Source: Candidatus Eisenbacteria bacterium RBG_16_71_46 (GTDB lineage: Bacteria; Eisenbacteria; RBG-16-71-46). Taken from it: 64,000 nucleotides of DNA. A program made the translations under genes and the position numbers. How positions within the stretch are numbered: the first letter of the stretch is position 1; each line of letters opens with the position of its first letter. Under the pieces are notes generated by a model, which ran no database searches, was not told the origin of the DNA, and saw only the letters and a program-made list of their open reading frames with translations. Where the stretch lies: assembly GCA_001780165.1 (NCBI GenBank), contig MFFQ01000079.1, forward strand, positions 2,348-66,347, in the 5' to 3' direction. Shown piece after piece: positions 16,730-54,901 of the stretch.

Positions 16730-16741
16730 ACCGCGACCCGA

Positions 16742-17845
<1,104 letters not shown>

Positions 17846-21987: not shown

Positions 21988-23385
<1,398 letters not shown>

Positions 23386-23392
23386 GGCGGGA

Positions 23393-33155: not shown

Positions 33156-36100
33156 TCAGGCGGCCCGCGGCCCCTGGCGCCACACGCGCGCGATCAACCG
33201 CTGCCCGTCCTCGAGCGCGGTGTAGAGGCACGGCACCAGGATCAGCGTGAGCAGCGTGGAGGAGGCCAGCCCCCCGATCACCGTGCGGGCCAGCGGGAAG
33301 TAGAGCACGTCGCCCACCCGGTTCTGCCCCAGCGCCAGGGGCAGCAGTCCGAGGATGGTGGTGGTCGTGGTCATCAGGATCGGGCGCAACCGGTCACGGG
33401 CCGCTTCCAGCACCGCCTGCTCGCGCCCCAGGCCGCGCCCGCGCAACTGATGGACGTGGTACAGCAGCACCACGCCGTTGTTGACCACGATTCCGACCAG
33501 GATCAGCAGGCCGATCTGCGCCATGAGATTGAACGGCGAGCCGGTGAGCAGGCAGACCCACGCGATCCCGACGAAGGCGAACGGCAGCGCGAACATGATC
33601 GCGAAGGGGTGGAGCAGCGACTCGAACAGCGCCGCCATCACCAGGTAGACCAGCACCAGGGCGAGCAACAGATTGACGAGCATCTCCTGCTGCGTCTGGC
33701 TCTCCTCCTCGAGACCCATGCCGAACGACCAGGAGTACCCGGGCGGGAAGTTCATCGCCTTGAGCTGCTGGGTCGCGGCCTTGCGCACCTGGCCCCCCTG
33801 GCTCGCCGCGTAGTTCCCCGCGACGGTGACCACCGAGCGGCGCTGCTGGCGCTGGATGCTGGCCGGGGTTTCCACCGTGCGGAAGTCCGCCACCGCGGCG
33901 AGCGGCACCACCTGGCCGTCGGCGCCGCCCAGCGGCAGATCGCGCAGGCGGTCGAGCCGCTCGCGGTCCTCGTTGGCCAGCCGGGCGGTGATCTGAACTT
34001 CGCCCTCGGGCCCACGGTAGCGCGCCAGCGGACGCCCGCGGAAGAACAACGCCACGGCCTGCGCCACGCCGGCGGTGGTGAGGCCGTGGCGCGCGGCGCG
34101 GTCCCCGCGCACGGCGACCTGGACCTCCTGGCGCCCCTTCTGCCCGCCGAGCTCGACGTCGGTCAGCCCCGACACCAGCGTCAGACGGCGGCGCACCTCC
34201 GCGGCGAGGTCGTCGAGACGCGGCCCGGGATCGCCGAACAGGCGCACGCCGAGACGCGAGGGACCGGAGTTGTCGTCGTCCCCACGCAGGCTGAGCTTGA
34301 GCCCGGGCAGGCTCGGCAGGCCGTCGCGCAGCATCTTGCGCACCTGCTGGGCGCCGTCGTCGTCGGCCCAGCCGGCGGCGAGGTAGGCGCGGGTGATGGC
34401 CATGTTGTTCGTGAAGTAGGAGTAGGTGGACTTGACGTGCAGCGAGTCGCGGCGGTCCTGGATCCAGTCCTCGACCCGCGACACGTAACGCTCGACCTCG
34501 CGGTAATTGAGGTTGTCCGCGAACTCGTAGCGGATCTGCACCGCCTCCACCCGGGTGCCGGTGAACGCGCTCTTGTCCACCGGGATGAACGCCGCCACCG
34601 AGACCGCGAACAGCAGCACCCCCGCACCCAGGGTCAGCGGCCGGTGGCGCAGCGTCCAGTCGAGCAGGACGTGATAGCGCGCGGCCAGCCACTCGACCGC
34701 GCCGATGCGCGGCGATACCCCGGCCGGCAGCACGCGGCCCATCGCCAGCGGAATCGCGGTCAGCGACAACAGCAGCGAGCAGCCGAGGGTGAAGATGATC
34801 GTCCGCCCCACTTCGCCGATCCAGGTCGTGATCTCGGTGCGACCGCCCAGCACCAGCGGCAGGAACACGATGACCGAGGTGGCGGTCGAGGTGATCACCG
34901 CGGGCAGCACCTCGCGCGAGCCCTCGAGCGCGGCGCGCAGCCGCCCACGGCCCTTGTGGCGCAGGCGCTCGATGCTCTCGAGCACCACCACCGCGTTGTC
35001 CACCAGCAGTCCGACCGCGAGCATCAGGCCCATCATCGACAGGATGTTGAGGCTGCGCCCGGTGAAGAACAGCAGCGCGCAGGCGGCGAGCAGCGAGACC
35101 GGGATCGCGAGCGCCACGACCAACGTCGCGGTCAGGCGCCGCAGGAAGAAGAACAGCACCCCGGTCGCGAGGACCGCGCCTACCAGCCCGGACTGCATCA
35201 GGCCGCGCAGCGAATTCTGGATCTCCTCGGCCTGGTCGGTGAAGGTCAGCACCTGGATACCCTCGAGCAGCGGGTCGCGCTTCATCTCCGTCAGCACGCG
35301 TCGCGCGCGGGTGGCCACGTCCACGGTGTTGGCGCCCGACTCCTTGATGACGTTGAGGCCGACGGCACGCGTGCGGTCGAGATGACGGCCGTAGTCGAGA
35401 TCGGGCTCCGCATAGGCCACGCGCGCCACGTCCGCGAGCCCCAGTCCGCGCGCGCCCACCGGGAAGCTCTCGATGTCGTCGAGGCTCGCGAACTGGTTCA
35501 CGATCCTGAGCGGCATGGTCTCGCCGGGCCGGCGGATCTGGCCGGCGCTCACGCTGTGGTTCGCAGCATCGAGCCGAGCGAGCACCACCTCGGCGTCCAC
35601 CCCGTGCCGCCGCAGCGCGTCGAGCCGGAAGTCGATCCGGATCTCGGGCGGCTCGACCCCGTAGAGCTCGACCTTGGCCACCCCCGGCACGCGACGCAGC
35701 GGGTCGGCGACGTGGCGGTCGAGCAGCTCGTAGGATTGCGACAGGTCGCGGGTGGCGGAGATGCGGCACTCGAGCACCGGGATGTCCGAGGAGCGGAAGC
35801 TGTTGACCCGGATGCGGTCGACGTCCGCGGGGAGCTGGTCGCGGATGCGCTCGAGCTTCTCGCGCGCCTCGACCCGCAACGGCTCGACGTCCTCGCCCCA
35901 GTCGAACTGGACGTAGATGTTGGCGGAGTTGGGCGACGACCAGGAGTGGATCGCGCGCACCCGGCTCAGGGTCGCCAGCGCCTCTTCGGCGGGGCGCGTG
36001 ATCTCCTCCTCGACCTGGGCCGGGAGCGCGTTCGGATAGGGTATCTCGATATCGAGACCCGGGAAGTCCACGTCGGGGAGGAATGCCAGCGGCAGGCGCG

Positions 36101-36191
36101 GCGCGGACACCGCGCCGATCACGATCACGCACAGGATCATCATCACCGCCGTCACCGGCCGGCGCAGGCTCCAGCGCGGGAGGTTCACCAC
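33156..36191 (-). CDS. RND efflux transporter permease (HAE1 family, MdtC/AcrB-like)
   Basis: The 1011 aa ORF begins MVNLPRWSLRRPVTAVMMILCVIVIGAVS...LPDVDFPGLDIEIPYPNA. It has 12 TM segments and two large periplasmic loops. The conserved TM4 region MMGLMLAVGLLVDNAVVVLE is present. Confidence 0.95.
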   Translation of the reverse strand: MVNLPRWSLRRPVTAVMMILCVIVIGAVSAPRLPLAFLPDVDFPGLDIEIPYPNALPAQVEEEITRPAEEALATLSRVRAIHSWSSPNSANIYVQFDWGEDVEPLRVEAREKLERIRDQLPADVDRIRVNSFRSSDIPVLECRISATRDLSQSYELLDRHVADPLRRVPGVAKVELYGVEPPEIRIDFRLDALRRHGVDAEVVLARLDAANHSVSAGQIRRPGETMPLRIVNQFASLDDIESFPVGARGLGLADVARVAYAEPDLDYGRHLDRTRAVGLNVIKESGANTVDVATRARRVLTEMKRDPLLEGIQVLTFTDQAEEIQNSLRGLMQSGLVGAVLATGVLFFFLRRLTATLVVALAIPVSLLAACALLFFTGRSLNILSMMGLMLAVGLLVDNAVVVLESIERLRHKGRGRLRAALEGSREVLPAVITSTATSVIVFLPLVLGGRTEITTWIGEVGRTIIFTLGCSLLLSLTAIPLAMGRVLPAGVSPRIGAVEWLAARYHVLLDWTLRHRPLTLGAGVLLFAVSVAAFIPVDKSAFTGTRVEAVQIRYEFADNLNYREVERYVSRVEDWIQDRRDSLHVKSTYSYFTNNMAITRAYLAAGWADDDGAQQVRKMLRDGLPSLPGLKLSLRGDDDNSGPSRLGVRLFGDPGPRLDDLAAEVRRRLTLVSGLTDVELGGQKGRQEVQVAVRGDRAARHGLTTAGVAQAVALFFRGRPLARYRGPEGEVQITARLANEDRERLDRLRDLPLGGADGQVVPLAAVADFRTVETPASIQRQQRRSVVTVAGNYAASQGGQVRKAATQQLKAMNFPPGYSWSFGMGLEEESQTQQEMLVNLLLALVLVYLVMAALFESLLHPFAIMFALPFAFVGIAWVCLLTGSPFNLMAQIGLLILVGIVVNNGVVLLYHVHQLRGRGLGREQAVLEAARDRLRPILMTTTTTILGLLPLALGQNRVGDVLYFPLARTVIGGLASSTLLTLILVPCLYTALEDGQRLIARVWRQGPRAA

Positions 36192-36258
36192 GGCGGGCTC
36201 CCGTCGCGGGCGGCACCCACGCCACGGGCCGCGCTTCCGCCGCCGTCCCGCGCCCCGC

Positions 36259-39200
36259 TCATGAGCTGCGGTCCACCGTGGCGTACACCACCGGAATCAC
36301 GATCAGGGTGAGCAGGGTCGAGAACGCCAGCCCGCCGATCAGGGTGATCGCGAGCGGCGCCCGGAGCTCCGAGCCCTCGCCGATGCCGACCACCATCGGC
36401 AGCAGCCCGAGCACCGTGGTGAGCGTGGTCATCAGGATCGGCCGCAGCCGTACCGTGGCGGCCTGGATCAGCGCCTGGATCTTGGGGGCGCCCTGCACCC
36501 GCAGCTGGCGCGCGTAGTCCACCAGCACGATGGCGTTGTTGACCACGATCCCGGCGAGCACCACCAGTCCGATGAACACCATGATGCTGAGCGGGGTGGA
36601 GGTGGCGAACAGGGTGAACACCACGCCGATCAGGGCCAGGGGCAGCGAGAACATGACCACGAACGGATGGAGCAGCGATTCGAATTGGCTCGCCATCACC
36701 AGGTAGACGAGGAACACCGCGAGCAGCAGGGCGAAGCGCAGCGAGGCGAAGGATTCGCCCAGCTCGCGGTTCTGGCCGGCGAGGGTGACCCGCGCGCCCG
36801 GGGGCAGCGGCAGGGCGTCGAGCGCGCCCTGGATCTCGGCCGCCGCCGAGGCCAGGTCGCGGCCCTCGAGGTTGGCACTCACCACCGCGGCGCGCTGCTG
36901 GCCGATGCGCCGGATGTCGCCCGGACCGCGCTCCACCGCCAAGCGCGCCACCGCGGCGAGCGGCACCGAGCTGCCCCGGTTGCGGCCGACCTCGAGTTGG
37001 GCGAGCGCGCTCACCAGCGACCGCTGGTCCTCGCTCGCCCGTACGCGCACGTCGAGCTTGCGCTCGAGGTCGCTGAACTGGGTCGCCGCCTCCCCCTGCA
37101 CCGCGTTGCGCACCAGGCGCGACGCGGACGCGGGATCGAGGCTCATCGCCGCGAGGCGGTCGCGGTCGAAGGCGATCCGCACCTCGGGATCGCCGAGGCG
37201 CACCGAGGTCTCGACGTCCTCCACCCCGCGCACCGCGCTCATCCGTTGCGCCACCGTGGCGGCCAGGGTGGCCAGCGTGTCGAGGTCGTAGGCGTAGACC
37301 TCGGCCTCCAGCGGAGCGCTGAAGGTCAGCAGCCCCGGGCGCTCGAATTCGTACGTCAGGCCCGGGATGCGGTCCATCTCTCGCCGCAGCGTCGCGGCGA
37401 CCGCCTCCTCGCCCCTGCGGTCCGACGCCCGCTTCATCACCACCGCGACCTGGCCGCGGTTGGCCTCGCGTGCCGAGCCGGCGAAGGCCGAGAGGTCGGT
37501 CTGGCCCGCGCTGGAGTAGGCGAAGCGCACCCGGGGGTCGTCCTTCACCGCGCGGGTCAGTCGGTCGAGGGTCTCGTCGGTGACCTCGAGCGCGCTGCCC
37601 GCCGGCAGCGTCACGTTGAAACGGAACTCGCCCTGGGTGAAGGACGGGAACAGATCGCGCGGCAGCATCAGCCCCATGAGCACCGCCAGGACCAGTGCCG
37701 CGGCGGAGAGCCCGAGCACGGCACGCGGCCGCGCCAGCGCGCGCGCCAACAGGCGCGGGTAGGCGCGGGACAGCGCGCCGTATCCGGCGTCGAAGGGAAC
37801 CAGCAACCGCCCGACCACGGGTGCGGAGCCGCGCCCGAGCCGGCCCATGCCGCGGATGACGAGCCGCGGCACGAACACCGCAAGGTACGCCGCCCAGCCG
37901 AGAAAGCCGGTCCAGCGCCCTGGAGGTAGGCTCGGCGCCGCGTCGGCGGTCCCCGCTCGGCGCCGTGCCGCGAGTGCGGCGATCGTCGGCACCAGCGTGA
38001 GTGCCACGACCAGCGAGGCCAGCAGCGAGAACGAGATCGTCAGCGCCTGGTCGCGGATCAACTGACCCGCCAGGCCTTCGACGAACACCAGCGGCAGGAA
38101 CACCGCCACCGTGGTGAAGGTGGATGCCGCCACCGCGGTCGCCACCGTGCCCGCACCCTGGCTCGCCGCCGCCACCGGCCCCAGTCCCTCTTCGCGTTTT
38201 CGGAAGATGCTCTCGAGCACGACGATCGAATTGTCCACCAGCATTCCCACACCCAGCGCCAGCCCGCCCAGCGACATGAGGTTCAGCGACAGGCCGAAGC
38301 GGTACATGATGACGAAGGTGGCGAGCACCGACACCGGGATCGAGAGCCCGATGATGAGCGTGGTGCGCAGGTCGTGCAGGAACGCGAACAGCACCAGGAT
38401 CGCGAGCAGACCGCCGACCACCGCGGCGCTCATGACGTCGCCGATCGCGGCCTGGATGAAGCGCGACTGGTCGGCGACAGTGACCAGCCGCATCTCCGGC
38501 GAGAGCTGCAGCCGGTCGAGGCGCCGCCGCACCGCGCGCGCCACGGTAACGGTGTTGGCGTCGCCCTCCTTGTAGACCGCGATCTCCACCGACTCCTCGC
38601 CGCCGACCCGGGCGACGACCTCGCGGTCGCGCGCCCCGCGAGCCACGGTGGCGACGTCGGAGACCCGCACGATCCCGTCGGGACGCGTCGCCAGCACCAC
38701 GCCGCCGATCTCCTCCGGAGCGAGGAACTGATTGACCGCGCGCACCAGGTACTCGGATCGGCCTTCGGTGAGCGAGCCTCCGGCGAGGTTGATGTTTTCC
38801 TCGCCCAGCCTGCGGGTGACGTCGCCAACGGTGAGACCGACCGCGTTCAGGCGCGCGGCGTCCACCTCGACCTGGATCTCCTCCTCCTCCCCGCCCGACA
38901 CCTTGACCGCGGCCACCCCGGCCACGCCCTCGAGGTCGCGCTGCACGGTCTGCTCCGCGATGCGGCGCAGCCGCTTCAGGTTGCCGCCGCCCGCGAGGCG
39001 CAGCCGCATGATCGGGTCGAGCGAGGGATCGAAGCGCAGCAACGCGGGACGCCGCGCCTCCCGGGGCAGGGTCACCAGGTCGAGCTTCTCGCGCACCGCC
39101 AGCGAGGCGAGATCCATCCGCGTGCCGGAGGCGAACTCCAGCGTCACCTCGGATTGCCCGGGGCGCGACACCGAGTGCATGCGCACCAACCCCGGCACCA

Positions 39201-39417
39201 CGCCCACGCCCTCCTCCACCGGGCGGGTCACGAACTGCTCGACGTCCGCCGGGGCCGCGTCGGGGAGGTCGGTGCGGACGGTGAGCGAGGGGTAGGAGAT
39301 GTTGGGCAGCAGGTCCACCGCGAGGCGCGAGGCCGCCACCAGCCCGAACACCACGATGCCCGCGGTCGCCATGAACACGGTGATCGGGCGGCGGATCGAG
39401 GCGTCTGCCAGCCGCAT
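36259..39417 (-). CDS. RND efflux transporter permease (HAE1 family, MdtB/AcrB-like)
   Basis: The 1052 aa ORF begins MRLADASIRRPITVFMATAGIVVFG...LPNISYPSLTVRTDLPDA. It carries GGLALGVGMLVDNSIVVLESIF. It is the second RND paralog in tandem. Confidence 0.95.
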   Translation of the reverse strand: MRLADASIRRPITVFMATAGIVVFGLVAASRLAVDLLPNISYPSLTVRTDLPDAAPADVEQFVTRPVEEGVGVVPGLVRMHSVSRPGQSEVTLEFASGTRMDLASLAVREKLDLVTLPREARRPALLRFDPSLDPIMRLRLAGGGNLKRLRRIAEQTVQRDLEGVAGVAAVKVSGGEEEEIQVEVDAARLNAVGLTVGDVTRRLGEENINLAGGSLTEGRSEYLVRAVNQFLAPEEIGGVVLATRPDGIVRVSDVATVARGARDREVVARVGGEESVEIAVYKEGDANTVTVARAVRRRLDRLQLSPEMRLVTVADQSRFIQAAIGDVMSAAVVGGLLAILVLFAFLHDLRTTLIIGLSIPVSVLATFVIMYRFGLSLNLMSLGGLALGVGMLVDNSIVVLESIFRKREEGLGPVAAASQGAGTVATAVAASTFTTVAVFLPLVFVEGLAGQLIRDQALTISFSLLASLVVALTLVPTIAALAARRRAGTADAAPSLPPGRWTGFLGWAAYLAVFVPRLVIRGMGRLGRGSAPVVGRLLVPFDAGYGALSRAYPRLLARALARPRAVLGLSAAALVLAVLMGLMLPRDLFPSFTQGEFRFNVTLPAGSALEVTDETLDRLTRAVKDDPRVRFAYSSAGQTDLSAFAGSAREANRGQVAVVMKRASDRRGEEAVAATLRREMDRIPGLTYEFERPGLLTFSAPLEAEVYAYDLDTLATLAATVAQRMSAVRGVEDVETSVRLGDPEVRIAFDRDRLAAMSLDPASASRLVRNAVQGEAATQFSDLERKLDVRVRASEDQRSLVSALAQLEVGRNRGSSVPLAAVARLAVERGPGDIRRIGQQRAAVVSANLEGRDLASAAAEIQGALDALPLPPGARVTLAGQNRELGESFASLRFALLLAVFLVYLVMASQFESLLHPFVVMFSLPLALIGVVFTLFATSTPLSIMVFIGLVVLAGIVVNNAIVLVDYARQLRVQGAPKIQALIQAATVRLRPILMTTLTTVLGLLPMVVGIGEGSELRAPLAITLIGGLAFSTLLTLIVIPVVYATVDRSS

Positions 39418-39478
39418 GGGTTCCTCCCCGGGAGGCGGCCCCGCGCGGCGCCCGGCGCCCGCGCGGCCGCGGTGGTCG

Positions 39479-40591
39479 CTACAGGGTCACCGAGCGGATC
39501 TTCGCCCCCGGCTTGAGCCCGCCCTGGCCGACCGTGACCACGCTGTCGCCCGCGGAGAGCCCGGAGAGGATCTGGGCGGTGTCGTTCTCCACCGCCCCGA
39601 GCGTGACCGGAACGCGCACCACGCTGTCGCCGCGGGCCACGAAGACGAAGGATTCGCCGTCCTCCTGGACCACGCCGCGCCGCGGCATCAGCAGCGCGTC
39701 GGTGAAGGCGCCGGTCTTGAGCCGCACCCGGGCGAACGCGCCCGGCCGCAGCTCGCCGGCCGGATTGGGCAGCTCGAGCGTCACCTTGAACGTGCCGTTG
39801 CTGCGGTCCACCGTGGGGTTGACCAGCGCCACGCGCGCGCGAATCTCCCGGCCGGGGTGCGCGTCCATGGTCAGGCCCGCTTCCTGCCCGACGTGGACCC
39901 GCGTCAGCTCGCGCTCCGGAAAGTAGAGCGGCGCGCGCAGCGGGTCGAAGTCGATCAGCCGGAAGCACTCCTTGCCGACCGGCACCGTCTCGCCGAGGCT
40001 GATCAGCCGATCCACCACCCGGCCCGCGAACGGAGCGGTGAGGCGCGTCTGGGACAGGTCGTAGCGCGCCTGCTCGAGCTCCACCCAGGTATTGCGCCGC
40101 TTGAGCTCGAGGTCGTCCATTTCCTTCTTGCTCAGGTAGTTCTGCTCGACGAGCTGCCGGCCCCGCTCCAGCTCGCGCTCGGCCATCTCCAGGGCGAGCT
40201 GGGTGCGCTCGAGCGCCAAGCGGGCCTCGGTGTCCTCGAGGCGCGCCAGCACCTCGCCCTTTTTCACCCACTGCCCCTCCTCAACCCCCAGCGCCACGAC
40301 CTGGCCGGCGCGGCGGGCGACCAGCACGGCGGAATGGCGCGCCTCGAGCGTGGTCGTGGTCTCGAGGAAGGTGGCGATCGCGCCGGCGCCCACCGCGGAC
40401 AACTCGACCGGCACCGGGAGCGGGGCGTCCTTGTCGGACTTCTTCTTGTCCTTCGAGGCGTTCCCGTTGGCGTTGCGGGCGACGAGCGCCCCGCCCGCGA
40501 GTGCCCCCAGGGCCAGCGTGGCCATCACCGACCAGAGCACGATCCGTCGCGAGCGGCGTTTCGCAACCTGCTGTTCCATCGGGACCTCCAT
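39479..40591 (-). CDS. efflux RND transporter periplasmic adaptor subunit (MFP/HlyD family)
   Basis: The 370 aa ORF has an N-terminal TM anchor, a lipoyl-like motif GQVVALGVEEGQWVKKGEVLARLED, a coiled-coil hairpin and beta-barrel domains. Confidence 0.9.
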   Translation of the reverse strand: MEVPMEQQVAKRRSRRIVLWSVMATLALGALAGGALVARNANGNASKDKKKSDKDAPLPVPVELSAVGAGAIATFLETTTTLEARHSAVLVARRAGQVVALGVEEGQWVKKGEVLARLEDTEARLALERTQLALEMAERELERGRQLVEQNYLSKKEMDDLELKRRNTWVELEQARYDLSQTRLTAPFAGRVVDRLISLGETVPVGKECFRLIDFDPLRAPLYFPERELTRVHVGQEAGLTMDAHPGREIRARVALVNPTVDRSNGTFKVTLELPNPAGELRPGAFARVRLKTGAFTDALLMPRRGVVQEDGESFVFVARGDSVVRVPVTLGAVENDTAQILSGLSAGDSVVTVGQGGLKPGAKIRSVTL

Positions 40592-40844: not shown

Positions 40845-41609
40845 TCATGGCCAGCGGCCGAAGTCCCACTCCAGGTGGAGCACCGGCCCGTGACCCTCAT
40901 CCTGCCAGGATTCGAGCACGCGGTCGGTCAACAGCGTGCTCGCCGGGTAGGAGCGGAACGGCTCCTCCCAGGTCCAGGCGCGGTAGCCGAGCGCGATGGT
41001 GAACGGGCGCGAGCGGCCCCGGAGCCCGAGCGTGAAGTTGCCCTCGGCCACTTCGGGCTTCTCGCGAATGCGCTCGGAGTTGAGGTACGGCAGTGCCGTG
41101 ATCCCGATCGCGAAGTCGACCTCCACGAACGCGCCGGGCCGGCCGGGTCGGCTGCGGAAGAAGCTCCCGAACACCGCGTCGCTGATCCCGTGCGAGCGAA
41201 GCGCGGGCCCCAATCCCTCGGGCAGCGTCACGCGCAGGTCCCGATAACCCACGAACACGCCGAACGGGCCTCCGACCCCGAGATCGACGCCGAGATCGCG
41301 GCGCCGTCCGGCGCCGTCGTCGAAGGCGGACGACGCGAGACCGGCACGGCCGCGAAGGAACAGCGCACGGTACCGGCCCGTGAGGCTTGCGTCCGCGCCC
41401 GGGCCGAAGCGGAGCCTGGTGCGGGCGACCACTTCCGGATCCCAATAGCCGCCCCCGCGCTGATGCGCGTAGGCGAGCAGTTCCGACCGCCATGCCTCGT
41501 AGTGGGGGCGCACCTCGCATGCCAGGCGCAGCGGGGCGTCCGCAGCGCCGACCACCGGCGCCGAGACGCACAGCACCACGAGGGCCAGCCAGCACACGCG
41601 GTCGCTCAT
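40845..41609 (-). CDS. secreted hypothetical protein (possibly a small outer-membrane protein)
   Basis: ATG at 41609 follows a GGAGG RBS. The signal peptide is MSDRVCWLALVVLCVSAPVVGAAD. The protein is Gly/Arg/Phe-rich with alternating strands. I recognise no family. The upstream 110 codons of the track ORF have no coding character. Confidence 0.55.
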   Translation of the reverse strand: MSDRVCWLALVVLCVSAPVVGAADAPLRLACEVRPHYEAWRSELLAYAHQRGGGYWDPEVVARTRLRFGPGADASLTGRYRALFLRGRAGLASSAFDDGAGRRRDLGVDLGVGGPFGVFVGYRDLRVTLPEGLGPALRSHGISDAVFGSFFRSRPGRPGAFVEVDFAIGITALPYLNSERIREKPEVAEGNFTLGLRGRSRPFTIALGYRAWTWEEPFRSYPASTLLTDRVLESWQDEGHGPVLHLEWDFGRWP

Positions 41610-41839
41610 GCGGCCTCCGAGCGGATGGGCCAGGTCGTGCTGCGATCCCGTCCCACCGCGGCCTGGGAGGGCACGCATCGGTCGTGCCCGGACCTTCGCC
41701 CGCCGCCGCCGTCGAGGAATCCGCTTGACAGCAGGCGGCTTGCGGGCCCTCGCTCCCGGAGCCGGCGCGGCGCGCCGCTCTCCGGCGCGTCTGCCAGAAT
41801 GTCGGACCGCCTGCCGCGCCGCGGGCCCCCGCTGGCTCG

Positions 41840-43246
41840 CTAGACGGGAGCCGCCGGCTCCCCGAGGGGCTCCGCTCAGCAGTACCAGGGCTCGGTGAGG
41901 AACGGCACCGGCGGTCGCCTGGGCGCGCGCGCGGTCCACGCCAGCGCGCGCGCGTGCCGGCCGGCGGCGGCCTCGGCCAGGGCGCGGGCGCGCGCGAACA
42001 CCGCCCCGCGCAGCTCGCCCCGGGCGCTCGCCGCCGCCACCATCGCCTCCACCTCCCGCTGCAGGCGGTCCACGCCGGGGTCGGCGTGCCGCCAGGGATG
42101 AACCAGGCGCGCCTCGTCGAAGGGCTCCACGAGGTCGCGCACCTCGGCCAGGTCGAGCAGGCGCGAGCCCGCCGGCACCAGCAGGCGGATCGCGAGCTGG
42201 ACCGGGGCGACGCTCTCCACCAAGTCCAACTCGTCGAGGTTGTCGAGCAGCTCGAGGTAGCCCGCGCGCGTGGTCCAGGGGTGGAACGCGACGAAGGTGG
42301 GATGAAAGTGCAATCCGGCCTCGCGCAGCAGCGCCACGGCCTCGACGAAGTCCGCCCGGGTGTGCCCCTTGTCGAGCAACGCCAGCACCCGATCGTCTAC
42401 CGACTCCACCGCGCTGGTGACGAACAGGCAGCCGGTCTCGCGCAGGGTCGGGAGGTGCTGGCGATGGCGCAGCAGGTGCTCGATCTTGATGGTGACGTCG
42501 TAGGTGAGGCGTGGGTGCTCGGCGTGCAGCGCCCGCACCAGCGGCAGCACGTGCCCGGGCCCGTTGAAGAAATCCGGGTCGCCGAAGGTGACGTGCTCGG
42601 CCCCGGCCGCCACCTGGCGGCGGACGTCCTCCAGCACGATTTCGCGCTGGACGATGCGAATGCGTCCCTGGTAGACCGGCACCACCGGGCAGTGGCGGCA
42701 GAGGTGCCGGCAGCCGCGGCTGGCCTCGGTGTAGCCCACCACGCGCGCCCGTCCGTCACCGCGCTCGAGGCGGGCGTAGCGCTCGAGCGCGGGCAGCGCA
42801 CCGCGCTCGGGCACCCGGAACTCGAGCCGCTCGGTGGGCGGCCCCGGCGCGGCGGGCGGCGCGGGGACGTCCTCCCCGGCGAGGTGGCGCGCGAGGCGCA
42901 CGAGGTCGGCCTCGTACTCCGCGCCGAGCACGGTATGGACCCCGAGGCCGCGCAGGTGCGCGGCGTTCATTGGCGCGTAGAGGCCGTAGGCGCACAGGTG
43001 CGCCCGCGCGTGGAGCGCGCGCACGCGCGGGATCTCGCGCGCGGCGAGGCGCGTGGCGGCGTGCATCGGCAGGTGGAACGCCACCAGGCCGGCCGCGCGC
43101 ACCGCCTCCGGGTCGAGTGCCTCCAGCGCCAGATCGAGGCAACGCACGGTGAAGCCCGCCTCCCCCAGCCAGGCCGCGGGCGAGGCCAGCCCGAACGGCT
43201 GGCGGCCGAGGTCGTAGGTCGAGACCAGGAGGATGGTGCGCATCAT
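41840..43246 (-). CDS. radical SAM selenoprotein with C-U-A-E-P tail (UGA 41876-41878 read as selenocysteine); B12-binding-like N-domain
   Basis: The rSAM cluster motif is CRHLCRHC (CX3CX2C). The track ORF ends ...FLTEPWYC at TGA. The same frame continues GCG GAG CCC (AEP), then LGEPAAPV and TAG at 41840-41842. A stable hairpin lies 13 nt after the UGA. Confidence 0.8.
41846..41862 (-). promoter_or_regulatory. SECIS-like stem-loop downstream of the in-frame UGA
   Basis: On the mRNA, GGGAGCC-GGC-GGCUCCC forms a 7 bp perfect stem (or 6 bp with a 5 nt G-rich loop). It starts 13 nt 3' of the UGA, the position expected for a bacterial SECIS. Confidence 0.5.
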
Positions 43247-43315: not shown

Positions 43316-43909
43316 TCAGGCCAGCGGGGACTGGCCTCCCTTGGACGGCCGGTAGTAGGGATTGGAGCCGCCGGCATGATCCGTGGAGTCCACGATCTCG
43401 CGGATGCCGGGCACCGCCTCGCGGATGCGCACCTCGATGCCCTGCTTGAGCGTGACGTCCACCATGCCGCAGCCCTGGCAGCCGCCGCCCAGCGCGATGT
43501 AGGCGACGTCGTCGCGCACGTCGAGCAGCGTGACGAAGCCGCCGTGCGAGGCCACCGCGGGGTTGATATCGCGGTCGATCACCTCCTGCACCGCCCGGGC
43601 TCTCGGGTCGGTCCACAGCGGGTTGGGATTCTCGATCTTGAAGCCGCCGCCCTGGGCGGTCTCGACGTAGTCGACCGAGGCGCCCGCGAGATGGGTCGCG
43701 CTCTCGGCGTCCACCAGCACCGTGAACCCGCCGGCGTCGATTGCGGTGTCGCCCGCGCCGCGCTCGGAAAGCGGCACGAAGCGCAGCACGTAGGTGAAAC
43801 CGTTGAGGCCGCGCCCGCCGATGCCGAAGCGCAGGGCCAGGCCCTCGCGCTTCTCGGCCGCGATCAGCTCCCGGATCTTCTCGCTCGCCTTCTCGGTGAT
43901 GGTCACCAT
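43316..43909 (-). CDS. nfuA: NfuA-type Fe-S cluster carrier (degenerate A-type domain + Nfu domain)
   Basis: ATG at 43909 gives the 197 aa protein MVTITEKASEKIRELIAAEKREGLALRFGIGGRGLNGFTY..., a HesB/IscA-like fold without the Cys triad. The C-terminal Nfu domain reads HGGFVTLLDV...IALGGGCQGCGMVDVTLKQGIE, with a CXXC motif. Confidence 0.85.
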   Translation of the reverse strand: MVTITEKASEKIRELIAAEKREGLALRFGIGGRGLNGFTYVLRFVPLSERGAGDTAIDAGGFTVLVDAESATHLAGASVDYVETAQGGGFKIENPNPLWTDPRARAVQEVIDRDINPAVASHGGFVTLLDVRDDVAYIALGGGCQGCGMVDVTLKQGIEVRIREAVPGIREIVDSTDHAGGSNPYYRPSKGGQSPLA

Positions 43910-45240
43910 CGTCGCTCCGCCCCCGCATCGGCCCGAACGCCCGGCGCCGCGCCCGGACCGGGTTGGATGTCGAACTCGAGCCAGCGGTGCGCCTCGCGCA
44001 GCGCCGCCTCGACCTGCTCCGGCGCGCCGCCGCGGGCGAAGATGAAGCCGAGGTAGCGCGCCCCCTCGGGCAGCGGCACCAGCTCGTCCCCCACCGGTAT
44101 CGTGATGCGCACGTCCTCGATCCCGGCCACCGCCCGCGCCGCCTCCACGCCGCGCACCCCCGCCAGCGTGCCGGCGCGCGGGATCGGGATCATCATCACC
44201 CCGGCGGCGGCGCGCTCGCGCTCGAGCCCGCCGGACTCGAGTCCCAGCGCCGCGCCGAGGATCACCTCCTCCAGCGAGCGGCCCTCGCCGAAGCGCAACA
44301 CCCGCGAGCATAGCCCGCCGATGGAGCGCGGGGCAATCTCCAGCAGGTGGGCCTCGCCCGCGTGATGGCGCAGCTCGGCGTGCACCGGGCCGTCGGAGAG
44401 CCCGAGCGCGGCCACCCCCGCCGCCGCGCGCCCCTCCACCGCCGCGCGCGCCGCGGCCGGCAGCCGCGACGGGGTGACGTAGATCGTCTCCTCGAAGAAC
44501 GGTCCCTCGAGCGGATCGGGCTTGTCGAAGACGGCGAGCACCCGCGGCACGCCACCCGTGACCAGCCCCTCGACCGCCACCTCCACGCCGGGGAGGTAGC
44601 TCTCGACCAGCAGGTGGCGCGCCAGCTCGTCGCCGGGCCGCGCCACCTCGGGGCGCCCGAGCAGCGCGGCGACCCGGCGGAAGGCCGCGGCGAACTGCTC
44701 CGGATCGTCGGCGCGGATCACGCCGCGGCTGGCGGCCAGCCCGAGCGGCTTGAGCACGCAGGGGAACTCCACCTCGCGGGCCAGGGCGAGCGGATCGGCG
44801 TCGAGCGCGAAGCGGTGGAAGCGGGGCGTGGGGATGCCGGCGGCGGCCAGCGCCCGGCGCATCCGGTACTTGTCGCGCGCGGCCGCCACCGCCTCGGGGG
44901 GATGGTGCGGCAGGCCGAGCGCGCGCGCGGCGAGCGCCGCGGTGAGGACCCCCTCGTCGTCGGCCGCGAGGATCGCCGCGAGCGGCCGGCGCGCGGCGAA
45001 GCGGCGGATGACCTCGACCGCGACCTCGGGCGCCGAAAAGTCGAGCGTCAGGTGCCCGTCGGGGTTGAAGCCCGCGAGCGCCTGCGGTCGCTCCGATCCC
45101 ACCGTGAGCGGCGCTCCCAGCCGTTGCGCCGCTTCGACGAACGCTCCGGCGCGATAGGACTGCGTGGTGACGAGCAGGAGCACGCGCCCCGGGCGTCTCG
45201 CCGGAACGACTCCACCCCCCTCACTCCAGTAGCGGGTCAC
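43903..45240 (-). CDS. ATP-grasp domain protein (carboxylate-amine ligase type), substrate unknown
   Basis: The 445 aa ORF has a pre-ATP-grasp region RVLLLVTTQSYRAGAFVEAA. ATP-grasp blocks include DKYRMRRALAAAGIPTPRF, FPCVLKPLGLAASRGVIRAD and LLVESYLPGVEVAVEG. The start is GTG. The 3' end overlaps the nfuA-like start by 7 nt. Confidence 0.8.
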   Translation of the reverse strand: MTRYWSEGGGVVPARRPGRVLLLVTTQSYRAGAFVEAAQRLGAPLTVGSERPQALAGFNPDGHLTLDFSAPEVAVEVIRRFAARRPLAAILAADDEGVLTAALAARALGLPHHPPEAVAAARDKYRMRRALAAAGIPTPRFHRFALDADPLALAREVEFPCVLKPLGLAASRGVIRADDPEQFAAAFRRVAALLGRPEVARPGDELARHLLVESYLPGVEVAVEGLVTGGVPRVLAVFDKPDPLEGPFFEETIYVTPSRLPAAARAAVEGRAAAGVAALGLSDGPVHAELRHHAGEAHLLEIAPRSIGGLCSRVLRFGEGRSLEEVILGAALGLESGGLERERAAAGVMMIPIPRAGTLAGVRGVEAARAVAGIEDVRITIPVGDELVPLPEGARYLGFIFARGGAPEQVEAALREAHRWLEFDIQPGPGAAPGVRADAGAERRW

Positions 45241-46202: not shown

Positions 46203-47192
46203 TCAGGCGGCGATCAGCAGCGTCTCGGCGAACGCCCACTGCTGGTCGATCCACCGGCCACCTTCGACGCCGAAGCCCGTGCGCCGGCCGATCTCGCGCG
46301 CCTCGCCCGCCGCGTACTTGTGGGAACTCTCGGTCCAGATGGTCTCGCCCGGCGCGAAACGAACCCGGAGACCCGCGGCCGGCACCTGCACCTCCTGGGG
46401 CGAGGCGGCGCGCAGGTGCATCTCGACGCGGCGCTCGCTCGCGTCGTAGCGCACCGCGTGGGCGAAGGCATCGAGGTCGAAATCCGCGCCCAGCTCGCGA
46501 TTGATCCGGCCCAGCAGGTTGAGGTTGAAGGCCGCGGTGACCCCCGCGGCGTCGTCGTAGGCCGCCAGCAGCCGCGGCACCGGCTTTTCGAGATCGGTGC
46601 CGAGCAGCAGGCCGTCTCCCGGCAGCAGCGACCGCCGCACCTGGCGCAGGAACGACTCGGCCGCCGGCCGGTCGAAATTGCCGATGGTGCTGCCGAGGAA
46701 GAGCAACAGCAGGCGATGGCCCGCCGGCCGGCGCCGCGCGACGTCGCCGAGCCCGCCCAGGTAGTCGCTCTCGATGCCCTCGAAGCGCAGCGATGGAATC
46801 CGGTCCAACTCGCGCTCGCAGTGGCGCAGCGCCGCCGCCGAGATGTCGATGGGAAAGTAGCACGTCAGCGGCTGCCGGCGCGCCAGCGCCTCGAGCAGCC
46901 AGCGCGTCTTGCGCCCGCTGCCGCTGCCGAGCTCGCTCACGATCAGCGGGCCGGGGATTCGGCCCACGATCTCGTCCGCCCGCATCCGCAAGATGCGCTC
47001 GTCGGCCGCCGTGAGACCGTACTCCGGGAGCTGGCTGATCGCCTCGAACAGCGCAGAGCCGACGTCGTCGTAGAGGTATCTCGAGGGCAGCGTCTTCTGT
47101 CCGGACCGGGTCAGCCCGGCGCGCACGTCGGCGGCGAACTCCGCCGTGCCCTGAGCTTCGCCGCGGGCCAGATCTTCCGCCTGCCGGATCAC
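46203..47192 (-). CDS. egtD: L-histidine N-alpha-methyltransferase (ergothioneine biosynthesis)
   Basis: GTG at 47192 overlaps the egtB stop (GTGA). Motifs are LPSRYLYDDVGSALFEAISQLPEYGLT, VSELGSGSGRKTRWLLEAL, FLGSTIGNF and WTESSHKY. Confidence 0.9.
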   Translation of the reverse strand: MIRQAEDLARGEAQGTAEFAADVRAGLTRSGQKTLPSRYLYDDVGSALFEAISQLPEYGLTAADERILRMRADEIVGRIPGPLIVSELGSGSGRKTRWLLEALARRQPLTCYFPIDISAAALRHCERELDRIPSLRFEGIESDYLGGLGDVARRRPAGHRLLLLFLGSTIGNFDRPAAESFLRQVRRSLLPGDGLLLGTDLEKPVPRLLAAYDDAAGVTAAFNLNLLGRINRELGADFDLDAFAHAVRYDASERRVEMHLRAASPQEVQVPAAGLRVRFAPGETIWTESSHKYAAGEAREIGRRTGFGVEGGRWIDQQWAFAETLLIAA

Positions 47193-48505
47193 CGCGTCAC
47201 CAGCCGGAACGTGGTGCAGGCGTACGGGTAGTGGGGCTGGAACCAGTTGCGGAAGGAGCGCCGCAGCATGCAGGCCGCGGTGCGCGGTGAACCGCCCTTC
47301 ATGACGAAGTGCTGGCCGTCGAAGAAGTTGGCCGAGTAGCCCGCGTAGAAGGGAAACGGCACGAACCCGTCGAACGGGCCGAAGGTCGTCGCGGTCCACT
47401 CCCAGCCGTTGCCCACCAGGTCCGCGATCCCGAACGCGCTGTCGCCGGCCGGGAACGATCCCACCGGCGCCGGATCCCACCCGTGGAAGTCGAAGTTGCC
47501 GTGACGGGCCTCCGGCTCGTCCTCGCCCCACGGGTAGGCGCGCTCGTGGCCGTCGGGCGTACCGTACGCGGCGCGGTGGAACTCCGCCTCGGTGGGCAGC
47601 CGCTTCCCGGCCCAGCGCGCGTAAGCGCGCGCCTCGGCCAGACTGACGACCACCGGCGCGTCGAGCGGGAGCTGAGTCTCGTGAAACATGCCCCGCAGGT
47701 ACCAGCCGTCGGAGCGCCGCAGCCAGTCGTGCGGATTCTGGCTCGGCCGGCGCGATTGCCACGCCCAGTCGTCATCCGCCCACCAGCGCCGGTTCTCGTA
47801 GCCGCCGGCGCGGAGGAACTCGAGGAAACCGCCATTGGTCACCTGGGTGAGGTCGATCTGGAACGAAGGGACCTCGACCACGTGTTCGTCGAACTCGTTG
47901 TCCCAGCCGAAGGCCGTGTCGCGTCCGAGCCCGAGCGCGGCGCGGCCGGCGGGGATGCGGACCATGCGCCGCTTGAGTGCGCGCGGCGGCGGGGGTGCTA
48001 CCAGCGCCGGCGGGCGTTTGTGATTGGTCGGCAATTGGTGGAGCAGGTAGGCCAGCGTCTCGGCGTGCATCAGCCGGTGCTCGATCGCCACCTGGATCAG
48101 GGTGCCGTCGCGCAGCTCCGGCGCCGCCTCGCCGGCGTGGTCGAGGGCGCGGTCCACGGCCTCGCGGGCCCGGCGGTTGTACTCGCGCACCTTCTCCACC
48201 GGGGGCCAGTCCGAAGCAGGTTCGTTGGGCAGGCCGCCGTCCACCGGATCGATGCCGAAGGCGAACAACTGGTCGAACGCCGAGTCGAAGGAGGGCCTGC
48301 CGAGCGCGCCGCGCGGGATCAGGTTCCAGTCGAAGGCCTCGACGTGGCCGAGGTAGAAGATCAGGCGGTGCCGCTCGGGAATCGGCCGCTCGTGCAACGC
48401 CCCCGGGGCCAGCAGGTCGAACAGCTCGTCGGTGCGCGAGCGGGCGTCGGCGAGACGCTCGGCGAGCAGCGTGCGATCCTCGATGATCGTGCGTGCAGTC
48501 GTCAT
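47189..48505 (-). CDS. egtB: ergothioneine biosynthesis sulfoxide synthase EgtB (DinB-like + FGE-sulfatase domains)
   Basis: A GGAGG RBS precedes the start. The DinB iron-site region is IFYLGHVEAFDWNL...HRLMHAETLAY. The FGE-type domain has RLPTEAEFHRAA, VGNGWEWTAT and the terminal RSFRNWFQPHYPYACTTFRLV. Confidence 0.9.
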   Translation of the reverse strand: MTTARTIIEDRTLLAERLADARSRTDELFDLLAPGALHERPIPERHRLIFYLGHVEAFDWNLIPRGALGRPSFDSAFDQLFAFGIDPVDGGLPNEPASDWPPVEKVREYNRRAREAVDRALDHAGEAAPELRDGTLIQVAIEHRLMHAETLAYLLHQLPTNHKRPPALVAPPPPRALKRRMVRIPAGRAALGLGRDTAFGWDNEFDEHVVEVPSFQIDLTQVTNGGFLEFLRAGGYENRRWWADDDWAWQSRRPSQNPHDWLRRSDGWYLRGMFHETQLPLDAPVVVSLAEARAYARWAGKRLPTEAEFHRAAYGTPDGHERAYPWGEDEPEARHGNFDFHGWDPAPVGSFPAGDSAFGIADLVGNGWEWTATTFGPFDGFVPFPFYAGYSANFFDGQHFVMKGGSPRTAACMLRRSFRNWFQPHYPYACTTFRLVTR

Positions 48506-48591: not shown

Positions 48592-50148
48592 TCAGGTGGG
48601 TTCGCTCGGAAGCCGCAGCCCGCGCGGAATCGCGATCCGGTCCAGCAGTTCGAAGCCCCACTGTACCAGAAGGGCCAGCAGGGCCGCAGGAATCGCCCCT
48701 TGAAGGATGAGCGAAGTGCGCCGCAGCTGGATGCCCGACAGGATCGGGTCACCGAGCCCGCCCGCGCCGATCAGCGCCGCCAGCGTGGCGGTCCCGACGT
48801 TGATCACGGCGCTGGTCTTGATCCCCGCCATGATCGCGGGCGAGGCCATCGGCAGCCGCACGCGGAAGAGCTGTGCGCCGGGCGAGAGCCCGATCGCCGC
48901 CGCCGACTCCGTGAGCGCGGCCGGGATGGTGGCGATGCCGGTGTAGGTGTTGCGCACGATCGGCAGCAGGCTGTAGAGAAACAGCGCCACCAGCGCCGGC
49001 CGCACCCCGATCCCCAGCAGCGGGATGAGGAAGGCGAGCAATGCCAGCGACGGGATGGTCTGCAGCAGCCCCGCGGCCGAGAGCGTCACCGCCGCCAGCG
49101 GGCGCGAGCGCGTGGCCAGCACGCCGAGCGGCACCCCGACCAGGATCGCGGCCAGCAGCGAGATCGCCACCAGCCGCAGGTGCTGCGCGGTGTCGGCGAG
49201 CAGCGCCCGCCACAGACCCTCGCGCGCGGCGGTCGCACCCCCGGCCGCGCCCAGCGCCTCGAGCAGCAGCGAGTCGGCCGACTGCGCGAACGGCACCCGC
49301 TCGAGCACCACGCGGGCGTTGGCCCGGATCATCGCGGCCTCGTCGATGCGGCCCTCCAGGCGCCGCATCGCCGCGAGCGCCCGTGGCTCGCGGTGCTCGA
49401 GGTCGAGCCGGTAGAGCCACACCGCGTCGTAGCGGGGAAAGAAGCCGCGGTCGTCGTCGAGCACGCGCAGGTCCAGGTGCTCGATCTGCGCGTCCGTGGT
49501 GTAGATGTCGATCACGTCCACCTTGCCGCTGGCGATCGCCTCGTAGGCGAGTTCGTGCTGGATGCCGCGCACGTTTCGCGACGAGAGGTCGTAACGGCGG
49601 GCGAGCCCGGGAAATCCGTCCTCACGTCCGATGAACTCGTGGGTAAGCCCGAAGCGCAGGTCCGGATGGCGGGCGAGGTCGGAGATGGTGCGCAGTTGGT
49701 AGCGGCGCTGGGTGTCCGCGCTCACCGCCAGCGCGTAGCTGTCGTTGAATCCGAGCGGGGCGCTGATGCCGATGCCCCGCGCGGCGAGGGTGCGGCGCAT
49801 CGCCTCGAGCGACGGGCGGCCGGGATCCTGCAGCAGCACCTCGGCGATGGTCCCGGTGTACTCGGGATAGACGTCCACGTCTCCCGCGCGCAGCGCCTGG
49901 TAGACGATCTCGGTTCCGCCGAGGTTGCTGCGGTGGCGCACCTCGGGCACGCCGGTCGCGCGGGTCAGTGAGGCCAGCCCCTCGCCCAGGATCCAGGACT
50001 CGGGAAACGCCTTGGACCCCACGGTCACCGTGCCCGCGGCGGCCGCGGGGACTGCCGCGACCAGCGCGAGCGCGAGCCCGGCCACCAGCGCGAGTGCGAG
50101 CCGGGCCGTCGTCGCGAGCGCGAGCCCGGCCGCCGTCGCGCGCCTCAT
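48592..50148 (-). CDS. quaternary-amine (betaine/choline/ergothioneine-type) ABC transporter, fused substrate-binding domain (N-terminal) + permease (C-terminal)
   Basis: ATG at 50148 overlaps the ATPase stop (ATGA). The OpuC/OpuB-like SBD has TVGSKAFPESWILGE, GGTEIVYQALRAGDVDVYPEYTGT and FPRYDAVWL. The permease has TIPSLALLAFLIPLLGIG and the EAA-like region ESAAAIGLSPGAQLFRVRLPMASPAIMAGI. Confidence 0.9.
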   Translation of the reverse strand: MRRATAAGLALATTARLALALVAGLALALVAAVPAAAAGTVTVGSKAFPESWILGEGLASLTRATGVPEVRHRSNLGGTEIVYQALRAGDVDVYPEYTGTIAEVLLQDPGRPSLEAMRRTLAARGIGISAPLGFNDSYALAVSADTQRRYQLRTISDLARHPDLRFGLTHEFIGREDGFPGLARRYDLSSRNVRGIQHELAYEAIASGKVDVIDIYTTDAQIEHLDLRVLDDDRGFFPRYDAVWLYRLDLEHREPRALAAMRRLEGRIDEAAMIRANARVVLERVPFAQSADSLLLEALGAAGGATAAREGLWRALLADTAQHLRLVAISLLAAILVGVPLGVLATRSRPLAAVTLSAAGLLQTIPSLALLAFLIPLLGIGVRPALVALFLYSLLPIVRNTYTGIATIPAALTESAAAIGLSPGAQLFRVRLPMASPAIMAGIKTSAVINVGTATLAALIGAGGLGDPILSGIQLRRTSLILQGAIPAALLALLVQWGFELLDRIAIPRGLRLPSEPT

Positions 50149-54472: not shown

Positions 54473-54901
54473 GACGACCTCCCGTGGGGAAGGACGATGC
54501 GTGGGAAGGAACGCGGCGAGAGGCTAGCACAGCCGACCCGCGCGTCCGCAGCCGGCGCGTCCGATGACGTCCCGGCGGTAGCGGGGCCGGCGTGAGTGCG
54601 GTCCCACGAGCATGGCTGCGCCCGCGCAGGTGCCGCGCGAGACCCGTCGCTCCACTTGCCCGCGAGCCGGGCCGGGGCTCGCCATCTGCCGGGCGCGGCA
54701 GGCCACATGCCAGATCGGCAGTCTTCCCACCTCGCAACGGCTCGTCGCACACCCGCGATCGCGATGCCTTGCGGGAAATTAGCGCGTCGCCCGACGAAAC
54801 GACCGGACTGGAACGACTCATGCTGGCCCGCTTGCGGACCGCCTCGGCCGGTCCTGCGATCGATGTCATCAAACCCCACGAACATGAGGAGGAATCGAGC
54901 C

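Follow-up and report, generated by a model that had tools for sequence, protein, structure and literature searches.

Comparative evidence for a recoded UGA in a CUAEP-tail radical SAM selenoprotein gene of Candidatus Eisenbacteria bacterium RBG_16_71_46, and a possible kinship of its chemistry with that of ArsL

In genes of the Escherichia coli fdhF type, the selenocysteine (Sec) insertion sequence (SECIS) is a hairpin that lies inside the coding region, directly after the UGA codon, and has a G in its apical loop, and in mammalian thioredoxin reductase a C-terminal Gly-Cys-Sec-Gly arm swings into the active site. We describe here a gene that recalls both. It encodes a radical S-adenosylmethionine (SAM) protein and lies on the minus strand of a 64,000-nt stretch of DNA from Candidatus Eisenbacteria bacterium RBG_16_71_46 (GenBank assembly GCA_001780165.1, contig MFFQ01000079.1, positions 2,348 to 66,347), hereafter the window, to which coordinates refer unless a locus is named. 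Sequence comparison strongly supports the view that this is a genuine selenoprotein gene, in which the UGA at 41876-41878 is recoded to Sec by a SECIS-type hairpin, the product ending ...EPWY-C-U-AEPLGEPAAPV.

The closest characterised relative of the encoded protein is ArsL. This enzyme cleaves SAM at the C-gamma-S bond, yielding methylthioadenosine together with a 3-amino-3-carboxypropyl (ACP) species, either a radical or an organometallic with an Fe-C bond; the ACP species forms a C-As bond with arsenite, which is held by the three cysteines of an RCCLKC tail, and removal or mutation of this tail abolishes the product (10.1101/2024.02.01.577332; 10.64898/2026.04.29.721666). The family to which the protein itself belongs, NF040546, has been in NCBIfam since about 2022, under exactly the name that the initial annotation of the sequence had given, 'CUAEP/CCAEP-tail radical SAM (seleno)protein'. 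A single mention of it was found in the searchable literature, by Haft & Gwadz (bioRxiv 10.1101/2022.07.06.499078), who called it 'uncharacterized' when discussing rare CU motifs, in agreement with the initial annotation, which had taken its function to be unknown. NF040546 is absent from a 2026 review table of prokaryotic selenoprotein families. The selenoprotein call correctly recognises a family that was already curated and is not new in itself; what is added here is comparative evidence for the SECIS element, together with functional leads, namely the alignment of the CC/CU tail with that of ArsL, an ATP-grasp partner, alternating Fe-S or iron helpers and an absence of arsenic genes. A very abundant family of unpublished function gains a concrete and testable hypothesis in this way.

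The reading frame beyond the in-frame UGA

An ATG at 43246 on the minus strand opens a frame of 456 codons (43246..41876) which ends ...PFLTEPWYC-TGA. Past the UGA, the same frame reads GCG GAG CCC CTC GGG GAG CCG GCG GCT CCC GTC TAG, that is, AEPLGEPAAPV followed by a stop. On re-reading, the features that had been picked out directly from the letters were all found to be correctly placed: the ending ...FLTEPWYC at the TGA, the in-frame A-E-P and LGEPAAPV as far as the TAG, the perfect hairpin 13 nt past the UGA, and the CX3CX2C motif CRHLCRHC. The suspicion that the open reading frame (ORF) caller had truncated the protein was also borne out, the predicted product being 468 residues long instead of the 456 that were called.

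Scored against NCBIfam with Sec written as C, the extended protein matched NF040546 with 637.3 bits (cut-off 500) over profile positions 1-466 of 468; without the tail, the score was 619.1 bits and the alignment ended at profile position 457. As the score exceeds the curated cut-off, the gene belongs to the family that had been named. Pfam returned PF04055 alone (54 bits). A protein search gave at least 8000 scored clusters (90% identity), all with E < 1e-20, and the family was found in at least 595 species-level genomes. The best 120 of these 8000 or more homologues all end ...EPW[YF]C and were thus truncated in the same way as the window ORF. The short form as annotated lacks the Sec-Ala-Glu-Pro residues, which are predicted, almost certainly, to be catalytic, and the same error affects the RefSeq gene of Thermomicrobium roseum as well as these 120 homologues.

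The position of the UGA was then compared in 80 genomic loci from species-representative genomes, belonging to Methylomirabilota, Acidobacteriota, Chloroflexota, Latescibacterota, Eisenbacteria, Verrucomicrobiota, Pseudomonadota, Entotheonella and Nonomuraea. Among the 78 loci in which the motif could be located, the codon was TGA in 63, TGC in 10 and TGT in five, so that the site is occupied by Sec or Cys codons in a ratio of 63/15; past it, the reading frame stays open for another 11 to about 40 codons, beginning AEPT-x-[ED]-Q-[LVF]-[AV]-..., with AEP kept in frame. One carrier of a natural Cys form is Nonomuraea sp. NPDC050783 (L031). Across 75 aligned full-length sequences, P448, E452, W454, C456, E459 and P460 are invariant, and A458 is conserved in 95%. 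The window protein shares with the other members the CX3CX2C motif, the C-U-A-E-P tail, the UGA at the Sec position and the hairpin downstream, but it carries a minority variant after AEP, with L461 where 85% have T, and P464 where 96% have Q.

A cultured organism, T. roseum DSM 5159, carries the UGA form on its megaplasmid (NC_011961.1, 796591-798027), with ...ESWFC-TGA-AEPLEDPSGP... and a hairpin in the same register, and is therefore available for Sec incorporation tests. In this locus (8935-10440 of our locus L085), the RefSeq protein WP_012643191.1 is named as a CUAEP/CCAEP-tail protein, yet stops at the TGA; the frame past the TGA reads AEPLEDPSGPVASQVRMVDQPLR, with the hairpin GGACCC-GUC-GGGUCC.

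The hairpin downstream of the UGA

The hairpin of the window has a stem of 7 bp and a spacing of 13 nt between UGA and stem (positions below are counted from the U of the UGA). Folding of nt 12-37 clearly separated the two classes of loci, the mean energy being -10.75 kcal/mol in Sec loci versus -4.69 kcal/mol in Cys loci (Mann-Whitney p = 5e-9), and a hairpin with dG <= -8 was present at this same distance from the codon in 58/64 of the former versus 1/15 of the latter. The sequences of these stems are diverse (33 distinct ones), with the loops AGUU, AGUUG, AGGUG, AGGUC, GUU, GGU and GGC. The loop of fdhF is AGGUC, which is also the loop of many NF040546 members.

Covariation was assessed on 34 sequences that share the pairing register and 7-bp helix of the window. 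Paired cells amounted to 89.9%, versus 81.0% in shuffles, none of 500 shuffles reaching the observed value; double-sided changes numbered 21, versus 5.9 expected; four of the seven pairs displayed a compensatory change, and controls with a slid register were all far lower. In addition, nucleotide 24 is G in 67/67 distinct Sec forms versus 10/15 Cys forms. This G24 is the third base of a Gln codon (Pro in three sequences), and Cys forms use CAA for 5 of their 14 Gln codons (Fisher p = 9.5e-5). Being fixed in Sec forms and synonymously free in Cys forms, G24 points to a constraint on the RNA and not on the protein.

Several observations weigh against recoding in this particular organism. The hairpin of the window is unexceptional when considered alone: the folding energy of the 43 nt that follow the UGA is -18.9 kcal/mol, versus -18.7 +/- 3.2 kcal/mol in dinucleotide shuffles (z = -0.07), in a sequence with 70% GC, and its significance consequently rests solely on the comparison with orthologues. 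It had been argued from the outset that AEP plus a hairpin would be unlikely to follow a random stop; this argument fails for the hairpin taken alone but holds once orthologues are compared (fold energies, covariation and G24). The window loop, GGC (CGGCG with the closing C-G pair open), lacks the U of the commonest loops AGUU and AGGUC, and this variant is common only to an Eisenbacteria locus (L006) and, approximately, to T. roseum; the minority residues that follow AEP in the window account for the change of loop. No tRNA gene, and hence no tRNA-Sec, was found in the 64-kb window, and E. coli SelA, SelB and SelD gave no tblastn match in it; in the flanks of the loci, the same queries returned just one weak SelA-like pyridoxal-phosphate enzyme (L074).

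These points, and above all the absence of Sec machinery from the window and the unexceptional, variant hairpin, would be accounted for if the UGA were a real stop in this organism, the protein ending at Cys456 and the AEP codons and hairpin being a recent relic left after loss of Sec decoding. Against such a relic, this reading frame and hairpin are found intact both in a syntenic ENA contig that is 98% identical to the window (L084) and in the Eisenbacteria locus L006; termination at Cys456 would remove E459 and P460, invariant in the family; the tail is intact, at 11 residues, the commonest length; and lineages without Sec use UGC or UGU at this position. A genuine stop at this position is accordingly considered extremely improbable, and a best explanation led by a recoded NF040546 selenoprotein highly probable, its chemistry being graded separately below.

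A scan of the whole window with Rfam at gathering thresholds, and a permissive scan of 41700-42000, returned no SECIS or other RNA family. GGAGCC occurs twice on the minus strand (41846-41873; nt 6-11 and 18-23), and either copy can form a stem with GGCUCC (nt 27-32); when the 43-mer is folded in isolation, the structure of lowest energy engages the upstream copy and not the conserved SECIS register. Lastly, no further selenoprotein candidate emerged when the window was scanned for in-frame UGAs with coding signal around them.

Table 1. Features of the selenoprotein gene and of its two upstream neighbours in the window.
Feature	Coordinates	Strand	Remarks
Full coding sequence, predicted CUAEP-tail radical SAM selenoprotein	41840..43246	-	468 aa; Sec = residue 457; predicted true stop TAG 41840-41842; NF040546 match
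In-frame UGA, predicted to be read as Sec (U457)	41876..41878	-	ORF callers stop there; Sec/Cys codon in orthologues
Post-Sec tail codons (AEPLGEPAAPV)	41843..41875	-	11 residues, the commonest tail length in the NF040546 family
SECIS-type hairpin GGGAGCC-GGC-GGCUCCC	41846..41862	-	nt 17-33 from the U of UGA; invariant loop base G24 at 41855
CX3CX2C motif (C179, C183, C186), predicted radical SAM [4Fe-4S] ligands	42689..42712	-	PF04055; 100% conserved
C273, family-specific invariant Cys in the radical SAM core	42428..42430	-	Cys in 75/75; Val in ArsL-like protein
N-terminal Rossmann-like ('B12-binding-like') domain, residues 1-122	42881..43246	-	AlphaFold2 secondary structure, Foldseek; PF02310 in homologues
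NfuA-like Fe-S carrier (Fe-S_biosyn and NifU domains)	43316..43909	-	Immediately upstream of the radical SAM gene
L-amino-acid-ligase-type ATP-grasp	43903..45240	-	ATPgrasp_N, ATP-grasp_4 and LAL_C2 domains

Protein architecture, gene neighbourhood and possible chemistry

An AlphaFold2 model built from 12 sequences (mean predicted local distance difference test score, pLDDT, 73.9; predicted template modelling score, pTM, 0.78) displayed a Rossmann-like domain at the N-terminus and a partial barrel of the radical SAM type. The best Foldseek matches were AprD4 (E = 5e-15), TsrM, OxsB, the methyl-coenzyme M reductase (MCR) glutamine methylase MgmA and MiaB. The B12-binding-like N-terminal domain that had been read from the sequence thus stands at the level of the fold, in both model and Foldseek matches, but not as a PF02310 match, which is precomputed for many homologues and was not significant for the window protein. 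AprD4, the best match, is not known to use cobalamin. The last ten modelled residues (447-456) had pLDDT values below 50, consistent with a flexible C-terminal arm bearing the vicinal Cys-Sec pair. Besides the CX3CX2C motif, the family conserves, within the N-terminal domain, only C85 (95%) and C36 (79%) in the 75 aligned sequences, and the invariant C273 is a candidate for an extra ligand.

The second-best NCBIfam match of the protein was NF040542 (ArsL), with 266 bits over residues 5-399, the next family scoring 46 bits. When a Bacillus cereus RCCLKC protein was aligned with the 75 CUAEP sequences, its CC fell on C456-U457, its third tail cysteine fell on the invariant P460, and Val, Thr and Ile occupied the positions of C273, C85 and C36. 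With an aligned vicinal pair but a different tail and different cysteines, the CUAEP and ArsL proteins appear as sister families and not as one family.

With regard to gene neighbourhood, the radical SAM gene belongs to a co-directional run that comprises genes for an ATP-binding cassette (ABC) ATPase, a fused OpuAC-type binding protein/permease, an EgtB-like sulfoxide synthase, EgtD, a two-domain glyoxalase-like protein, the ATP-grasp protein, the NfuA-like protein, the radical SAM protein, a protein without a Pfam or NCBIfam match, and a resistance-nodulation-division (RND) adaptor with two pumps. The ATG of the NfuA-like gene overlaps the stop codon of the ATP-grasp gene (ATGGTGA). The best PDB match of the ATP-grasp protein was 3VOT, the L-amino acid ligase BL00235 (E = 2e-39), followed by BacD. 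Neighbours were counted in the 59 loci with at least 1.8 kb on both sides of the radical SAM gene: an ATP-grasp gene adjoins it in 41 of them, in an upstream, downstream or convergent position depending on the lineage, and no alternative conserved partner was found in the loci that lack one. The window's gene order, ATP-grasp/NfuA/radical SAM, also occurs in an NC10 locus (L081) and in L084. A gene for a Cys-rich DUF169 protein (PF02596), for which neither a solved structure nor useful literature on function was found, stands beside the radical SAM gene in nine loci, and between it and the ATP-grasp gene in three (L018, 11498-12250; L043, 11499-12215; L046, 11716-12444). In a metagenomic lineage, the radical SAM gene directly follows small and large aconitase-family (LeuD/LeuC-like) genes (L082, 6078-9371; L083, 5714-9007), with no ATP-grasp gene there and with a ChrB_C-domain gene and a major facilitator superfamily transporter downstream.

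A second class of neighbours handles iron. A YggX-type iron-trafficking protein (PF04362) is encoded in 35/59 loci and an NfuA-like protein in 5/59, as well as in the window and in the NC10 locus, the two never occurring together; this mutual exclusion looks like one helper role filled by two proteins. NfuA rebuilds the auxiliary cluster of LipA, and the helpers may be read accordingly: the enzyme would insert sulfur or selenium at the expense of a sacrificial cluster, following the logic of MiaB, RimO and LipA, with C85, C273 and sometimes C36, together with C456/U457, holding an auxiliary Fe-S(e) cluster or a persulfide or perselenide. Consumption of this cluster at each turnover would explain why the radical SAM gene nearly always has an NfuA-like or YggX gene as a neighbour, and the family-specific conservation of the three cysteines (C273 in 100%) as well as weak sequence and fold matches to MiaB-family enzymes are in line with it. 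However, MiaB-family scores do not exceed 25 bits, against cut-offs above 250, a three-Cys motif of the UPF0004 type is lacking, C36 is not invariant, and the close relative ArsL has just the radical SAM cluster and its tail cysteines. We therefore consider a sacrificial cluster improbable.

The relationship with ArsL raises the question of arsenic. RCCLKC genes lie inside ars islands in the 4/4 plasmid loci inspected (Pseudomonas, Pantoea, Bacillus and Priestia), and three of these four clusters also contain an ATP-grasp gene (Pantoea agglomerans pAJ2b_C, L171, 5001-9744; B. cereus pBFR_2, L086, 441-6272; Priestia megaterium, L169, 2693-7278), the Pseudomonas arsQ-arsL-arsM cluster (L170) being without one. 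In Pantoea, the ATP-grasp gene belongs to the same operon, between the radical SAM gene and arsM; its product is 28% identical to that of the window (E = 2e-15) and, used as a query, it recovers the CUAEP-associated ATP-grasp in 41 loci. These neighbours hint that the RCCLKC/ATP-grasp clusters may make peptides that contain arsinothricin; our literature search found no paper linking ArsL with an ATP-grasp protein.

It is conceivable, then, that the CUAEP proteins have the same function as ArsL, forming hydroxyarsinothricin, or arsinothricin directly from methylarsenite, with Cys-Sec as a tighter arsenic binder; a vicinal two-ligand site would suit a disubstituted As(III) and makes methylarsenite a conceivable substrate. 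The status of ArsL as closest characterised relative, the alignment of CC with CU and the ATP-grasp genes of some ArsL-family clusters argue in this direction. By contrast, seven queries (ArsQ, aquaporin, ArsN1, ArsC, ArsB, ArsR and ACR3) gave no match in the window, nor over a range of about 10 kb in 85 loci, one of which has an ArsM-like gene; RCCLKC genes sit in ars islands, unlike the CUAEP genes; and the score of 266 bits is below the ArsL cut-off of 450. Identity of function with ArsL is thus very improbable, and an arsenic link of the CUAEP family was rejected on the grounds that ars genes are absent near the 85 loci.

From a mechanistic point of view, chemistry resembling that of ArsL nevertheless offers a possible reading of the tail, the ligase and the helper together. 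SAM would be cleaved reductively at C-gamma-S, as in ArsL, to give methylthioadenosine and, on the [4Fe-4S] cluster, an ACP species. A soft atom would be captured by the mobile Cys-Sec arm, perhaps with the help of C273, and handed over to the cluster that bears the ACP; formation of a carbon-heteroatom bond there would lead to a gamma-substituted 2-aminobutanoate. The adjacent ATP-grasp of the L-amino-acid-ligase type would then couple this amino acid into a dipeptide, while the NfuA-like protein, or YggX in other lineages, would supply or repair the iron-sulfur cluster. Because ars genes are absent near the 85 loci, arsenic is probably not the captured atom; likelier candidates are a chalcogen, with Se or S in the form of a perselenide, persulfide or selenosulfide, or a different metalloid.

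Taken as a whole, this scheme, which proceeds by analogy with ArsL, is plausible though short of probable. A number of findings speak against it: the 18/59 loci with no ATP-grasp gene nearby, the lack of ars genes and the sub-threshold ArsL score mentioned above, the absence from the CUAEP tail of the third ArsL cysteine, replaced by P460, and the canonical 5'-deoxyadenosyl radical enzymes among the nearest folds. In addition, no paper on the function of the NF040546 family was found in our literature search, nor biochemistry for any member.

These nearest folds (AprD4, TsrM, OxsB, MgmA and MiaB) bring forward a different role for the tail. The protein may be a canonical 5'-deoxyadenosyl enzyme, either an AprD4-like dehydratase/reductase or a class-B-like alkylase, whose Cys-Sec pair acts as a swinging selenenylsulfide/selenol-thiol redox arm that supplies or removes reducing equivalents at the active site, like the GCUG of thioredoxin reductase or the C-terminal Cys pair of class I ribonucleotide reductase. 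Such an arm is in line with Sec/Cys interchange, a usual trait of redox sites, with the flexibility of the tail in the AlphaFold2 model and with the lack of metalloid-handling genes nearby (ars queries, 85 loci). It is opposed by the score for ArsL, 266 bits versus at most 46 bits for any canonical enzyme, by the alignment of the CU pair with the substrate-binding CC of ArsL, and by the amino-acid-ligase partner, which fits an amino-acid product better than a redox role. A redox arm is therefore possible, if on the unlikely side.

A bolder formulation of the ArsL-like chemistry, which we regard as distinctly doubtful, is that the CUAEP family constitutes a widespread ACP transferase acting on a non-arsenic soft atom (Se or S, with Te and Sb as alternatives), the product being ligated into a dipeptide, and that in the window this module has been fused to an ergothioneine operon. 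Such a family, if real, would provide a second and much commoner case of carbon-heteroatom bond formation by radical SAM enzymes, and a previously unknown gamma-chalcogen or gamma-metalloid amino acid; it would also add a small-molecule pathway not known before to the soil Acidobacteriota, Methylomirabilota, Chloroflexota and relatives.

The remainder of the run deserves description in its own right. An ergothioneine-type gene pair (46203-48505, minus strand) is co-oriented with the radical SAM module and lies upstream of it; EgtD exceeds its cut-off of 291 bits with a score of 300, and the DinB plus FGE-sulfatase enzyme scores about equally as OvoA (264 bits), SenA (254) and EgtB (242), all below cut-off. 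Further upstream, the fused OpuAC-type binding protein/permease (48592-50130, minus strand) and its ATPase gene (about 50130-50960) form an ABC transporter that resembles ergothioneine importers. Directly downstream of the radical SAM gene lies an ORF (40845-41660, minus strand) of about 255-270 aa (254 aa as called in L084) with no Pfam or NCBIfam match, followed by the RND adaptor and two RND pumps at 33156-40591. The whole run from the ergothioneine genes to the radical SAM gene is present in L084, and the betaine-type transporter in L006 alone of the 80 loci. No relatives of the EgtB-like, EgtD, glyoxalase-like, RND or downstream genes were found in any of the 80 loci, which indicates that the ergothioneine adjacency is lineage-specific; an ergothioneine link as a general feature of the family was rejected on this basis. 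Elsewhere, the window encodes a relative of the multicopper oxidases PhsA/CueO (54596-57082, plus strand), 2-oxoglutarate dehydrogenase E1 with dihydrolipoyl dehydrogenase (21988-28287, minus strand) and, at 49-17908, maltodextrin-type glycosidase and ABC transporter proteins, none of them related to selenium. The best match of the dihydrolipoyl dehydrogenase, at 71%, comes from a Candidatus Eisenbacteria metagenome-assembled genome.

Comparison with known systems

The element that follows the UGA resembles the SECIS of the fdhF type: it is a hairpin placed immediately past this codon, inside the coding region, and its apical loop holds a conserved G. It differs in its GGC/CGGCG loop, devoid of U, and in having no Rfam match, and its SECIS role is predicted here from the comparison of orthologues.

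The arrangement of the tail is reminiscent of mammalian thioredoxin reductase, both proteins carrying a vicinal Cys-Sec pair on a flexible C-terminal extension with Sec near the true stop. The folds are however unrelated, thioredoxin reductase being a flavoprotein disulfide reductase, and its SECIS is of the eukaryotic type, in the 3'UTR. Ligation of cobalt by the CU pair in the manner of HgcA was also considered and dropped, since the CU of HgcA lies in an N-terminal PCUGP motif and not in the corrinoid cap helix.

Among radical SAM enzymes of known structure, AprD4 (6FD2), TsrM (6WTE), OxsB (5UL4) and MgmA (9CCB) have the same succession of a Rossmann-like domain and a radical SAM barrel (E from 5e-15 to 1e-10), but with just 13-21% identity, and the Cys-Sec tail of the window protein is found in none of them. 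The low scores and missing N-terminal motif described above place the protein outside the MiaB/RimO families. It is not an ArsL either, as the RCCLKC motif with its three arsenic-binding cysteines is absent and only the vicinal pair is shared; no solved structure of ArsL was found for comparison. Compared with ArsL (NF040542), the window protein has about 55 extra linker residues before the tail, Sec in place of the second Cys, and the family-specific C273 and C85. Over residues 5-399, it is nonetheless homologous to ArsL, with about 35% identity to the Bacillus RCCLKC proteins, and both have a short Cys-rich C-terminal tail and a recurrent ATP-grasp neighbour.

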